Part shown: in pieces, positions 1 through 9,000 of the stretch
Position numbering within the stretch: position 1 is the stretch's first letter
Layout of the letters: each line of letters begins with the position of its first letter
Source: a plasmid
Length of the DNA stretch: 64,000 bases
Direction: 5' to 3' (one strand)
NCBI RefSeq assembly: GCF_058153355.1
Contig: NZ_JBLWLY010000002.1
Program-made: the position numbers

Positions 1-3000
1 AAACGCCTGGCTCGCAGAACCATCTGTTTCTCTCGCTCTGTAAAATTTCATGAAAAAGTTATCGGTGCTTTTATCGAAAAACATATGTTCTACTAATTGG
101 AGTCATCACCCTTTTCCTCTTGGTGTTATCCCATCAATATTTCGGCCACGTGGTTTACGTTTATTATTGATAATAATCAATGAACTGCCGAGTAAAAATA
201 ACTGCTGATATACGGGATCCCATGTCAACTCCCGTATTATATATTATACCCCAATAGGGTTACATTATTAATGTATGTAAATGTTAATTAATCAAAACAT
301 TAATCAATTGTTATATAATGCATCACAGGTAAACACCAAATCAACGCAAGTATAATATAGTAAAAATGGTTCATATTTTGGTACTGTTTGGTTTTTTCGT
401 TTTTAACGGGTGGATATTTGTCTATTTTTTTTTTAAATTATTTGTGTGCTTTCCATAAATAATGGGGTGTAAGTTATTAACTCTAAATTAGTGAGTATTA
501 AATATATTGTGTTTATCTCTGCTTTATTAATTTCCAATACGGGAAAGGGGGGCGAACAGCGAGTTGTTTTCAATGTGGATATTGTAGGTTCTGCCTGTCA
601 TGTGGTGGTGGATGCGGACGGTTTCGGCAACAGTGGCCGACTGATATTCGGGACTTACCGTAAATCCACTGGCGCACCTGTATTGCCACGTGACTTCGTT
701 GTGCGCTTGTATGAGTCCGGCGCTACGGTTCAAGGGTGTTCAGCCTTTCGAGCGGGGCAGGTCGCAACTCTGGATTTTGGTAACCCGGGCCAGCTGGACG
801 CAAAGGGAGTGGTCACTCGCGGTGCTGGTGATGGTATTCGCGTGGATGTACGGGCGGTGGATACACAGGCGGATTATCGCGGACGTCTGACTCAGGACAG
901 TCATTCGGTGAATTACCCGGTGGAGTTTGCTGTTAAGGGACAGTTCCGTTTTCGTGCACAGCCGGTGTTTCCGGTGAACGTGAAGGCAGGGGAATACACA
1001 GGGGCGCTGACCTTTGTGGTCACGTATCAGTAACAGAGGAAAGTGTGTGTGCAGGAAAGAAGGGGGCAGAGCTGGTTTTGTTCTTGTTTTTTCGTCGGGC
1101 CGCGCTTGCTGTATCAGTCGCTTTCGCCAGTGCCACAGGTGTTGCAGGTGAAAAACTGGATATGTCCTTTATTCGGGGTGGTGCCGGGATTAATCCGGAA
1201 GTCTGGGCAGCGCTGAACGGCAGCTATGCACCGGGACGTTATTTGGTTGACCTGTCCCTGAACGGGAAGGAAGCCGGGAAACAGATACTGGATGTGACAC
1301 CACAGGACAGTGATGAACTGTGCCTGACAGAGGCATGGCTGACGAAGGCCGGGATTTACGTCAGTGCAGATTACTTTCGTGAGGGATATGACGCCACACG
1401 GCAGTGTTATGTGCTGACAAAAGCGCCGTCAGTGAAGGTGGATTTTGATGTTTCCACTCAGAGTCTGGCGCTGTCCCTTCCCCAGAAGGGGCTGGTGAAG
1501 ATGCCGGAGAACGTGGACTGGGATTACGGGACTGGTGCATTTCGCGTGAACTATAACGCGAACGCCAACACCGGCCGGAATAACACCTCGACCTTTGGCT
1601 CGGCAGATCTGAAGGTTAATATTGGGCACTGGGTGGTGAGTTCTTCTGCCTCAGCCAGCGGTGGTGACAGCGGGGATAACTCCGCCACGATAAACGCGTT
1701 CACGGCCACCCGGGCCATCCGCGCACTGAGTGCGGACCTGACGGTCGGGAAAACATCCACCGGGAGCAGTCTGCTGGGCAGTACGGGAACGTACGGAGTG
1801 TCGCTGAGCCGGAACAACAGCATGAAGCCGGGCAATCTGGGGTATACCCCGGTGTTCAGCGGCATTGCGAACGGGGCGTCGAGGGTGACACTGACACAGA
1901 ACGGGCGGTTGCTGCATTCGGAGATGGTGCCGGCAGGTCCGTTCTCCATCACGGATGTGCCGCTGTACACCAGTGGGGATGTGACCATGAAAATCACCGG
2001 CGAGGACGGTCGTGAGCAGACTCAGGTCTTCCCGTTGTCGGTGATGGCCGGGCAGTTAAGCCCGGGACAACACGAGTTCAGCGTGGCAGTCGGTTTGCCT
2101 GACGATGACAGTGACCTGAAAGGCGGCGTGTTTGCGGCGTCATACGGTTACGGTCTGGATGGACTGACGCTGCGCACCGGGGGCGTGTTTAACCGGGACT
2201 GGCAGGGTATTAGCGCCGGGGCTGTCCTGGGGCTGAGTTATCTGGGGGCAGTGTCTGCTGACGGGGCTTATGCCATGGCGAAATACCGTGACGGCAGCCG
2301 CAGCGGAAATAAGGTGCAGTTATCCTGGAGTAAACAACTGGAGATGACGAACACCGGACTGCGGGTGAGCTGGTCACGGCAGAGTGAGGAATATGAGGAC
2401 ATGTCCTCCTTTGACCCGACAGAGCTGTGGTCGCAGTCAAATCATGGTCGCCGGCCGAAGGATGAATGGAATGCCGGTATCAGTCAGTCGGTGGGGGGGC
2501 TGTTCAGTCTGTCGGTGTCCGGCTGGCAGCGGAGTTATTACCCGGCACAGATGACGGGCCGTTATCGGTACAGCGATGACAATGGTCTGGACACAGGGAT
2601 TACCGGTACCCTGAGCACACAGATTAAGGGCGTCAGTCTGAATCTGGGCTGGTCCGGCTCACGGAATTCGCAGGGAGAGAATAACAGGTCGGCGTCAGCC
2701 TCTATCTCGGTGCCATTCACGCTGTTTGAGCGTCGCTACAGCAGCAGTACGTCGGTGAGTACCAGCAAAGGCGGTGGCACGGGCTTCAGCACTGGCGTGT
2801 CCGGCTCGCTGAATGACCGTTTCAGCTATGGCTTGGGCGGCGGTCGTGATAGCGGTGGTGGTGTGAGTAGTTATCTAAACGCGTCGTACAGTGGTGACCG
2901 GGCTTATCTGAATGGTGCCCTGAACCACTCACAGTCCGGCGGAACCAGTGGTTCTGTATCAGTCAGCGGTTCGGTACTGGTCGTCCCGACGGCGAAAGAC

Positions 3001-6000: not shown

Positions 6001-9000
6001 CTGTTTTGTTTTATCCGGATAAACAGGAATGAATGCCGATGAAAATAACGCATCATTATAAATTCTTCCTTTCTGCTGTTATTTTGGTAACCATATTTTA
6101 TTCGGCAGTGCCATATGCAAATATTCTTGATGGCGGCGAAATTCAGTTTAATGGCTATGTTACTGATGAAGCACCCAAATGGGCCTGGCAGATAAGTTCT
6201 CCCGACCAGACTTGGTCTGTGGATACTGCCGATGCCCGTACAGAGAACGGGCAACTGGTTTTTAATTTGCATGATAAAGGGGCTCTGCCATTTCTGGAGG
6301 GACATCTGCATGATGTGGCTGAGCGCGGTGGTCCCGGATTCACGCCATTTATTACTTTCAGCAGTAACGGACAGCCTTTTACTGTGACGGAAGGAAATGG
6401 TGCCTCAGCACAGCACTTTCGCGCCTCTGTCCCGGTGCGTGACCCGGAGACGGGGAACGTGTCGGGACAGCTTTTTTTTACCCTGAATCAGGGAATGGCG
6501 GTCAGTACCGGCAGACAGGACGACGGGGCATCCGTACCGGCTGGCATGTCGCTGGTCAGTGGACAGAGTGTGACGGATGTACAGCCGGGAAGTCTGCCAC
6601 AGGGGCTGAAAGCCCGACTCTCTTCCCTGTTACTGATGAATCAAAATTTTGGCAATGGCATGAATGCGGTGGATAACGGACAGGTTATCAACCAGGGGAT
6701 ACTGACTGACGGTCGGGTGATGGATCTGGCTGCGGCATATGCCTCTGCGGTGTCGGATTTTGAACTGCGGTTGCCGGCAGAGGGTACACCTGCAGCATGG
6801 CAGGCGGGGCTGAATGTGACGGTTACAGTACAGTGATGGTTGCAGGGATATAAGGAGAGAAGAGAATGAAAAAGGTGGCGTTGTTTCTGTTTGCTGCTAG
6901 CCACCTGCCTTCCTGTGTACTGGCTTGGAACACGCCAGGAGAAAATTTCAGCGGAGAGCTTAAGCTGGAAGGCCCGGTGACCAGTACCCGTAACCCGTGG
7001 GTATGGAAAGTCGGGCAGGGAAATGAAGGTCTGGAGGTTAAACAGAGCCGCGGTGTTCGTGGCGGTGGGGAGGGGATTCAGGTCGAACTGCCGGCGATGA
7101 CCGTTTTACTGGGAAAAACCACCCTGACCACACCGGCAGGACGTGAGGGGCTTTCACCCCGGGTCAGTTATGGAAAAGGCACTGAGGGGTTTTCACTTGT
7201 ATGGACAGCGCCTGGCATGGCTGAAGTGACGCTACCTGTCACCGGAGATAATAATGCCCGGGCAGGCACATTTGTTTTCAGAATTCAGGCTGTGGGGGTG
7301 TTGCGCCATGTGCAGGGCGGACAACCGGTGTATGTTGGTATGTATGACGACCTGAATACGAATGGTTTGCCAGGTGAAAGCACTGCCATGAAGGTTTCTG
7401 ATATTCCGGGCGTTCTGCAGAAGATGTTCAGTGGGGAAGGCCCCGGCTGGCTTCAGACAATGACACTCAGTGGTTATTCAGGGGTGAGTCATTTCAGTGA
7501 TGACTTCCTGCGCCAGGTTGAAGGTGTGTATGGTGCACAGACTGTGGCTGGCAGTGGTGAATTACGGCTGAACGGCGAGATGCCGGAACACTGGAGGGTG
7601 TCACTGTCAGTAAACATTGAATATCAGTAAGGAGCAGGAGTGCGTTTTATAATCCGGAGATAAGGAACGTCGGTTACTGTAAGATTGGGGAGTTGTGTTG
7701 ATAGCGGGAGTGGCTGGAATAAGTGGTATACATAGATAAAAATTAAAACTATCACTATTTGAGGAGTTTTTTCCTGCTCTCCATGGGCTTTATAGCTCAC
7801 AAAAAATAGAATAATATTATTAATTATTCTGCTTTTTTATGGGCATTCCCCCTTGAAAAATGAGTTTGTGCCAGAATATTATTAATGTGTTTTTTGTGAT
7901 TTACTAATCAAGGATTGCTGAATAGCATCCAGTACTGAATATTTTGTTCAATTATGTCAGGAACCATACCGAAAATCAAAACAGGTGAAAATGTTCTGTC
8001 TGCAGCCATTCAGCGCATTGAATGGCTATTTGGAACGTTTCCTTCTGTCTGCTTGTCCTTTTCTGGTGGTAAGGATTCTACCGTGCTTTTCCATCTTGTG
8101 TCCGAAGTGGCCCGCAAAAAGAGGCGTCGTTTTTCGGTATTGTTCATTGACTGGGAAGCACAATATCAATGCACCATTACGCATATTCAGAAGATGCAGA
8201 AGATGTACCTGGATGTGACGGACAGGTTTTACTGGGTGGCCCTTCCCCTGACTACGGTAAACGGTGTCTCTCAGTTTCAGCCGGAGTGGATATGCTGGGA
8301 GCCTGGTGTGACCTGGGTTCGCCATCCACCGGAATATGCTATTACGGATATGGCGTATTTTCCCTTTTACCGATATGCCATGACCTTTGAGGAATTTATC
8401 CCGGCGTTTTCCTCCTGGTTTGCCAGGGATAAATACCTGGTGGCTGTTCTGACCGGAGTCCGGGCAGATGAGTCCCTCAACCGCTTTATGGGACTGGTAT
8501 CCCGTCGCAAACAGAGATATGCCGATGATAAACCCTGGACTACGGCATCACCTGAAGGGTTTTATTACACCATGTATCCGTTGTATGACTGGAAAGCCCG
8601 TGATATCTGGATATATAACGCCAGAACCCGAGCTATCTACAATCCCCTGTATGACCTGATGCACCGTGCCTGTGTGCCGTTACGCAACATGCGTGTCTGT
8701 GAGCCTTTTGGTCCTGAACAGCGTAAGGGGCTGTGGCTTTATCATGTTCTGGAGCCGGAAACCTGGGCCAAGATGTGTGAGCGGGTGTCGGGTGCTGCCA
8801 GCGGGGCGCTTTATGCCAATGAGAGCGGTGCCTATTTTGCCCTGCGTAAGCGTATCACGAAGCCGCCTCATCATACCTGGCGTAGCTATGCGATGTTCCT
8901 GCTGGATGTGATGCCGGAAAGAACGGCAGAACATTACCGTAACAAAATTGCTGTCTACCTGCGCTGGTATCAGACGCGAGGCTTCCCGGATGACATTCCG

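Follow-up and report, generated by a model that had tools for sequence, protein, structure and literature searches.

A complete K88-family fimbrial operon on an invasion plasmid, with a diversifying major subunit and a linked Rns-like AraC gene

The 64,000-nucleotide (nt) stretch of plasmid contig NZ_JBLWLY010000002.1 analysed here (the window, to whose coordinates all positions refer) contains, at 491-7630 on the + strand, a complete chaperone-usher operon of the F4/K88 family (kappa class) without faeA, faeB and faeJ. It lies on the background of the invasion plasmid (pINV) of Shigella and enteroinvasive Escherichia coli (EIEC). The accessory fimbrial genes and the neighbouring ibrA gene are under purifying selection (omega, the ratio of nonsynonymous to synonymous change, 0.08-0.32), whereas the fifth gene, encoding the major subunit (hereafter G), is under strong diversifying (positive) selection within the pINV lineage. 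We consider it probable that this intact operon is an ancestral module of pINV, that it belongs to a subfamily marked by an AraC-family regulator resembling Rns, and that its major subunit is diversifying under selection. The locus itself is already known and catalogued; new here are the selection signature of G and the recognition of a subfamily whose members share the AraC gene and a conserved cis element.

Operon layout and selection on the major subunit

Seven intact open reading frames (ORFs) of 180, 811, 260, 163, 274/266, 267 and 254 amino acids (aa), with zero internal stops and short or overlapping junctions, succeed each other in the order of FaeC, FaeD, FaeE, FaeF, the major subunit, FaeH and FaeI (Table 1). 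The usher was assigned by NCBIfam to the PefC/AfrB family (NF011760, 1203 bits, cutoff 752), and PF27684 (K88_fimbrial_pA) is recorded on orthologues of the FaeC-like subunit. The reference for K88 was CP122818 (L005), a genuine operon of porcine enterotoxigenic E. coli (ETEC) comprising faeA, two IS1 elements, faeB and faeC-J. Against it, BLASTP returned significant Fae matches for six of the proteins (83-97% identity) and none between the fifth protein and FaeG. The first-pass annotation had described a complete Fae-like operon running C-D-E-F-G-H-I, and both order and sizes bear it out. Inactivating frameshifts in the usher or chaperone, which would have spoken against that description, are absent from both ORFs, and no frame-breaking coding indel was found between the window and nine other copies of the locus. 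It had also noted the lack of faeA, faeB and faeJ, and tblastn likewise detected no homologue of their products across the 64-kb window and the flanks of related pINVs. The window holds 490 nt 5' of the first ORF, and farther upstream in related plasmids lie insertion sequence (IS) elements.

The affiliation of G is less direct. A phmmer search against FaeG chains in the PDB gave a marginal match (E about 1e-3) restricted to the C-terminal half. However, the 18 top Foldseek matches in the PDB to an AlphaFold (AF2) model of G (pLDDT 83) were all FaeG structures (E about 1e-14, TM score 0.62-0.69, about 20% identity). On this model, G is predicted to be a FaeG fold with a novel sequence type. 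The earlier label of a FaeG-like major subunit is thus upheld for the fold and not for the sequence, which does not match FaeG of the ab, ac and ad serotypes that define K88 in the strict sense. The high identity of six proteins to Fae together with the FaeG fold of the fifth argue for a true F4-family operon with a new type of major subunit.

Selection was examined in the window and the nine other copies (six complete plasmids and three draft contigs), with omega obtained from a tree-based parsimony count. Values were 0.09 for C, 0.17 for D, 0.21 for E, 0.24 for F, 0.32 for H, 0.23 for I, 0.08 for ibrA and 0.31 for the AraC gene. In G, 236 nonsynonymous changes stand against 27 synonymous ones (omega about 2.6), a deficit of synonymous changes that is significant both against neutrality (P = 9e-8) and against the flanking fimbrial genes (Fisher P = 6e-51). 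The indel-free comparison with S. sonnei 53G alone gave 36 nonsynonymous and 3 synonymous changes. Alleles of G at the same pINV locus range from 99% down to 67% aa identity at a synonymous divergence (dS) of only 0.06-0.10, and faeF and faeH are 97-100% identical across copies whose G alleles diverge to 67% (the FaeH-like subunit is 99.6% identical across pINV copies). The signal peptide and C-terminal strand of G are conserved among pINV alleles, and no non-pINV plasmid in PLSDB carries a G of more than 43% identity. Imported, saturated foreign alleles would give an omega of at most about 1; the pattern is therefore one of diversifying selection.

Some variation was also seen in the usher gene. 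At its start (1034-1070), a GTGTGTGTG run has indels of 2-3 nt on its flanks that vary from one pINV copy to another, and different in-frame GTG starts must therefore serve the usher in different copies; gene callers report lengths of 798 or of 811-812 aa. An apparent usher frameshift in three EIEC copies was rejected as an artefact of start choice, since the run provides in-frame starts and the gene bodies are intact. In EIEC plasmid CP065616 (L007), dS between its usher gene and window positions 1150-3480 is 0.38, against 0.01-0.04 for neighbouring genes, which points to a recombinant segment from another fae-like operon.

The AraC gene, the upstream block and the IbrAB-like pair

Orthologues of the AraC-family protein (70-87% identity) are encoded directly 3' of fae-like C-I operons in five independent types of non-pINV contig (L022, L025, L026, L027 and L028/29). 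The protein is of the Rns-like class, having a C-terminal double helix-turn-helix (HTH), and its best relatives among solved sequences in the PDB are Rns (3e-9), CsvR (8e-8) and ToxT (2e-4). The ibrAB genes stand between operon and AraC gene in L025 and L026, and are a remnant or absent in L022, L027 and L028/29. These non-pINV loci also have the same type of FaeC signal peptide as the window, whose FaeC-like N-terminus matches those of L022 and L026. PLSDB relatives end at 9801, and the AraC gene was accordingly considered as cargo specific to pINV; the contigs with orthologues refute this. The truncation suggested by a 157-aa product annotated in S. sonnei was dismissed as an annotation choice, the 294-aa frame being open there.

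The DNA ahead of the operon is bounded by an IS1 remnant; at the homologous place RefSeq annotates an incomplete IS1 family transposase (pCFSAN029787_01), and an IS1 InsB-like ORF is present in L002. Positions 121-545 are matched in PLSDB only by the 15 full-operon pINV records (94-96% identity), and homology with PLSDB relatives (p3RM8082, pSalSendai, K88) begins only at about 554. Within this region, the conserved 108-nt block is 65-72% identical to L026 and L022, compared to 19-38% for neighbouring non-coding DNA. With a profile of the block, L027 (E 2e-14) and L028 (E 2e-12), both outside the training set, gave matches 5' of faeC, and there was no match in the K88, Sendai (pSalSendai), RM8082 and O169 loci. 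A -35-like TGGATA (411-416) and a -10-like TAAATT (434-439) are separated by a 17-nt T-rich spacer, around which TGGA(C/T)A and TAA(A/G)TT are invariant in the alignment; a conserved AAATCAAC...ATAGTAAAAATGGTTCATATTTTGGTA is located 5' of these candidate hexamers. The block may be a weak sigma-70-like, activator-dependent promoter with a conserved upstream site, and the AraC protein would most likely be the activator of the operon. We infer that the subfamily to which this module belongs never had control of the FaeA/FaeB/FaeJ type, and has the upstream block and the Rns-like AraC protein instead. The first-pass annotation had suggested AraC as a possible regulator of the operon; the suggestion gains from association (five linked contig types, kinship with Rns and CsvR, the linked block) and falls short of a demonstration.

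Other readings of the upstream DNA were discarded. The AT-rich sequence and odd FaeC signal peptide are not an inactivating replacement specific to pINV, as this type of signal peptide and a conserved upstream block recur in non-pINV relatives. Phase variation at a poly-T tract was rejected because what looks like a T10/T12 difference is explained by a substitution and a 2-nt indel close by. A Pap-like Dam/Lrp switch is ruled out by there being only one GATC in the upstream region. No Rfam element was found in the region. A hydrophobic upstream ORF of 30 aa (MVHILVLFGFFVFNGWIFVYFFFKLFVCFP; 366-458, +) lies within the conserved block. L022 and L026 share its first seven codons apart from some synonymous changes, but ORF length varies (30, 23 and 12 aa). 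The ORF may encode a leader peptide or may have arisen by chance in a T-rich promoter region. A more distant AraC homologue (62%) occurs in a different context on a contig of ERR273775 (L030, 3194-8712). Its neighbours are a polysaccharide deacetylase, a glycosyltransferase, a lipid A acyltransferase, MipA, an ORF of the FaeA family and a second AraC-type fragment. About 900 nt 5' of this homologue is a sequence that weakly resembles the conserved block (E 0.001).

Between operon and AraC gene, a phosphoadenosine phosphosulphate (PAPS) reductase/DUF3440 gene is followed by an overlapping gene with a ParB N-terminal (ParB-N) domain, the arrangement of an IbrAB pair. A promoter scan called a promoter-like site at 7853-7882, ahead of the IbrA-like gene, which is 90-91% identical to copies behind the fae-like operons of RM8082 and pSalSendai. 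The IbrAB proteins reportedly activate the eib adhesin genes in ECOR-9 (Sandt et al. 2002). Control of the operon by this pair, or by the plasmid virulence regulon (VirF/VirB/MxiE), rather than by AraC, appears unlikely. In its favour, on plasmids of E. coli and Salmonella that lack this AraC gene the pair is co-conserved (about 90%) 3' of fae-like operons, ibrAB is under strong purifying selection, and the locus sits among effector genes regulated by VirB and MxiE. However, ibrAB has been lost from L022, L027 and L028, which retain operon and AraC gene; the pair is thus dispensable in some AraC-linked relatives. Nor is it specific to fimbriae, as it is found on 583 plasmids beside unrelated loci (e.g. 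iroBCDN in Klebsiella, and an autotransporter). As for the virulence regulon, control by MxiE or VirB was rejected: box-like matches for MxiE lie elsewhere in the window and not 5' of faeC, and the sole VirB-like heptamer falls within the IS1 remnant.

Distribution, loss and alternative explanations

Positions 1-10949 (about 11 kb) are 97.4-98.1% identical to pINV sequences of S. sonnei 53G, several S. boydii and EIEC (e.g. NC_016833 and CP011417), O96:H19 strain CFSAN029787 among them. Annotations in these records comprise faeD/E/F/H/I, 'cshE pilin', PAPS reductase, ParB-N and AraC. The pINV loci of S. sonnei lineages 1/2, S. boydii and EIEC have the same architecture as the window, including the IS1 remnant, ibrAB and the AraC gene. 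The window differs in being a distinct allele lineage, with G 87-91% identical to theirs and a FaeI-like subunit of 254 rather than 250 aa, owing to a 12-nt in-frame deletion in the other complete pINV copies compared (indel at 7047-7058). Contigs of E. coli GCA_043012465.1 and SRR28786219 are 99.95% identical to the window.

The first-pass annotation had called such fimbriae unexpected next to Shigella-type effectors and perhaps silent. The first point does not hold, as the same locus is already annotated on the pINVs of S. sonnei 53G, S. boydii and EIEC. A K88 (fae) locus on S. sonnei pINV has been described (Miles et al. 2025, PMC12511311; 2026 resource paper, PMC12795559), present in lineages 1/2 and removed from lineage 3 by a deletion of ~11 kb. 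Of the module, S. flexneri pINVs have kept no more than the 3' end of ibrB and the AraC gene (split by IS1 in one strain, truncated in pCP301). This 3' remnant implies that the module was ancestral on pINV and later deleted. Other copies, some of them on EIEC plasmids, are broken by ISEc60 or cut short by IS1.

More tentatively, the fae-like operons with an adjacent AraC gene may be an unrecognised regulatory subfamily of F4 fimbriae, in which the Rns-like AraC protein and the upstream block replace FaeA and FaeB. Its pINV member would be expressed in the host by EIEC and some Shigella and diversify antigenically under immune pressure, as an adhesin of the ancestral invasive toolkit that the most host-restricted lineages are shedding.

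On the main reading, by analogy with K88, the FaeE-like chaperone would capture subunits in the periplasm and the FaeD-like usher would polymerise them, the FaeC-like tip subunit first. The FaeF- and FaeH-like minor subunits would aid initiation and elongation, and the FaeG-fold major subunit would form the shaft and probably serve as the adhesin too. Expression would most likely be switched on by the Rns-like AraC protein at the weak sigma-70-like promoter in the AT-rich upstream block. The strong positive selection on G implies that at least some lineages of EIEC or Shigella have made the fimbria and exposed it to antibody or to changing receptors. In S. flexneri, S. sonnei lineage 3 and some EIEC the locus has been deleted or disrupted by IS elements.

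Shigella and EIEC are usually regarded as non-fimbriated. The rate at which G diversifies is typical of immune-exposed antigens, and the candidate dedicated regulator and cis element can be tested directly. If expressed, the fimbria would be a lineage-variable adhesin and antigen bearing on the biology of EIEC and S. sonnei lineages 1/2, on serology, and on the question of why S. flexneri and S. sonnei lineage 3, both successful, have discarded it.

A number of observations weigh against this account. Expression data in any strain and functional studies were not found, the retrieved literature recording presence or absence. The faeC ORF begins with GTG, lacks a clear Shine-Dalgarno sequence and encodes an atypical signal-peptide cleavage region; its putative promoter agrees with the consensus at only 8/12 positions and escaped the promoter scan. 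The omega of the AraC gene indicates moderate constraint only, the gene is frameshifted in CFSAN029787 and split in the S. flexneri strain mentioned above, and its synteny with the operon is an association and not proof of regulation. An enrichment of variable G residues in predicted loops, a weak proxy for exposure, was not significant and was dropped. Finally, repeated loss or breakage of the locus (S. flexneri, S. sonnei lineage 3, the ISEc60 insertion, the IS1 deletion, the AraC frameshift) means that successful lineages can dispense with it or select against it.

That record of deletion, disruption and truncation is also what would be expected if the operon were a silent or decaying relic of an ancestral plasmid backbone, which invasive E. 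coli and Shigella never express and are in the course of losing. Consistent with decay, the 71-aa ORF behind faeI survives here only as a pseudogene (36-46% identity over 50 aa by tblastn, with E values of 6e-4 to 5e-3), the upstream DNA is AT-rich in the manner of H-NS-silenced genes, and tblastn found no FaeA or FaeB in the window and pINV flanks. However, the seven fae-like genes, ibrAB and the AraC gene are all intact in the window, the accessory genes do not have an omega of about 1, and the non-coding block is conserved across lineages. Moreover, the omega of G is significantly above neutrality, which relaxed constraint cannot produce. Purifying selection on the accessory genes combined with diversification of G argues against a silent relic, and we regard this explanation, and with it the earlier suggestion of silence, as improbable. 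An intact counterpart of the 71-aa ORF (MVYMDKNLK...YGWGVLSCYPWHL...), of unknown function, directly follows faeI in non-pINV relatives.

It is very unlikely that what this invasion plasmid carries is the csh operon, which encodes the ETEC colonisation factor CS13: although the NCBI annotation pipeline (PGAP) names G 'cshE pilin' in most records and CS13 is a kappa-class fimbria with published cshE diagnostic primers (PMC6343939), these primers match every G allele fetched with at least 5 mismatches and only at irrelevant positions (an indirect test), the six accessory proteins are K88-like, and G has no close relative on non-pINV plasmids in PLSDB. A scan of metagenomes with the cshE primers for a CS13 locus gave 0 matches. 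On sequence grounds, the PGAP label for G seems doubtful.

The remainder of the window agrees with the invasion-plasmid background recognised earlier, as OspF is encoded and there is 98-99% identity to pINVs whose records name IcsP, OspB and PhoN2. It further encodes a large autotransporter and an F-like leading/transfer region. The latter (11000-31000) includes a 652-aa ParB-like protein, psiBA and an intact 482-aa TraB, and is about 94% identical to known F-type plasmids, with no close match among the pINVs of PLSDB. A single 351-aa ORF in it (18235-19290, +) covers PsiB (residues 2-128) and PsiA (116-350), an apparent fusion of genes that are normally two and adjacent. A group II intron reverse transcriptase/maturase (44651-45883, -; TIGR04416, 394 bits) lies among the effector genes. 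Three IS66-family transposase ORFs (523, 523 and 479 aa), all on the - strand and about 18 kb apart (11145-12716, 29201-30772 and 46345-47784), offer possible substrates for rearrangements or deletions around the fimbrial module. The window contains four MxiE-box-like matches, where 0.6 would be expected. One (52753-52769, +, 2 mismatches) is just 5' of the ospF ORF (52823), and another (63289-63305, -, 3 mismatches) just 5' of an ORF at 62333-63199 in the ospB region.

Table 1. Features of the fimbrial module. Percentages are BLASTP identities to the K88 reference CP122818; domains are from Pfam unless named otherwise.
Feature	Position	Strand	Description
IS1-family 3' remnant	1-110	+	Ends in terminal inverted repeat ...GGAGTCATCACC (99-110); bounds the module on the left on pINV
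AT-rich operon upstream region	111-490	+	About 29% G+C; no FaeA/FaeB gene, one GATC, no MxiE box
Conserved non-coding block	332-439	+	108 nt; in all AraC-linked fae-like loci; candidate promoter/operator
FaeC-like minor (tip) subunit	491-1033	+	180 aa; GTG start; variant signal peptide; 85% to FaeC (residues 23-180)
FaeD-like outer-membrane usher	1045-3480	+	811 aa; Usher/PapC_N/PapC_C, NF011760; 93% to FaeD
FaeE-like periplasmic chaperone	3473-4255	+	260 aa; 8-nt overlap with usher gene; PapD_N; 97% to FaeE
FaeF-like minor subunit	4290-4781	+	163 aa; DUF5462 (6e-66); 87% to FaeF
Major subunit (G)	5019-5819	+	266 aa from second ATG (ORF opens at 4995, 274 aa); Fimbrial_K88 (1e-45)
FaeH-like minor subunit	6033-6836	+	265-267 aa; Fimbrial_K88 (8e-75); 83% to FaeH
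FaeI-like minor subunit	6866-7630	+	254 aa; Fimbrial_K88 (2e-74); 83% to FaeI
Pseudogene remnant of conserved 71-aa ORF	7723-7885	+	TAA at codon 8, frameshifts (frame analysis)
IbrA-like protein	7954-9180	+	408 aa; PAPS-reductase/DUF3440
IbrB-like protein	9165-9803	+	212 aa; ParB N-terminal domain; RefSeq 'IbrB-like domain-containing protein'/'ParB N-terminal domain-containing protein'
Rns-like AraC-family regulator	10031-10915	+	294 aa; 34% G+C; intact; HTH_18 (PF12833)/HTH_AraC (PF00165)

Comparison with known fimbrial systems

The K88 (F4) fae operon of porcine ETEC has the C-I order and protein lengths of the window locus and the high identity of six proteins described above, and in both an IS1 element adjoins the regulatory region. 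It differs in possessing faeA, faeB and faeJ, in its upstream region and in its FaeC signal peptide; the IbrAB-like pair and AraC gene downstream are features of the window locus. Their major subunits have no relation at the level of BLASTP and share about 20% identity in structural alignment.

Seven-gene fae-like operons also occur on plasmids of commensal or animal E. coli and of Salmonella, such as pSE11-3, p3RM8082 and pSalSendai, with about 89% nucleotide identity to the window over faeC-faeI and ibrAB. Like the window, they carry a variable major subunit in a conserved frame. The operon of commensal plasmid pSE11-3 has been described as K88-type, with seven locus tags (ECSE_P3-0031 to -0037, PMC2608844). 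pSalSendai differs from the window by an upstream PapB-like gene, faeJ and an EAL-domain gene, and RM8082 by a VirK/YbjX gene and the lack of an AraC gene; the conserved upstream block is absent from both. In pSalSendai (L004, CP023471, 3375-16121) this fuller relative reads PapB-like, faeC-J, a 213-aa protein, the EAL-domain protein, two short ORFs and ibrAB. The second short ORF is an AraC-type HTH fragment, 29% identical to the C-terminus of the window AraC protein.

AraC-family regulators are known from other K88-related loci, namely LdaA of Lda and AfrR of AF/R1, which are described as similar to the Rob-like Caf1R with an N-terminal DNA-binding domain (PMC6440114). By these descriptions the window AraC protein, with its C-terminal DNA-binding domain, is set apart from LdaA and AfrR. 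Its kinship lies with the Rns/CfaD/CsvR-type activators of ETEC fimbriae, Rns and CsvR being closest, although similarity is confined to residues 167-286 and the N-terminal domain has no recognised relative. As in that type, the protein ends in a double HTH and its AT-rich gene stands beside a fimbrial operon with an AT-rich promoter region.

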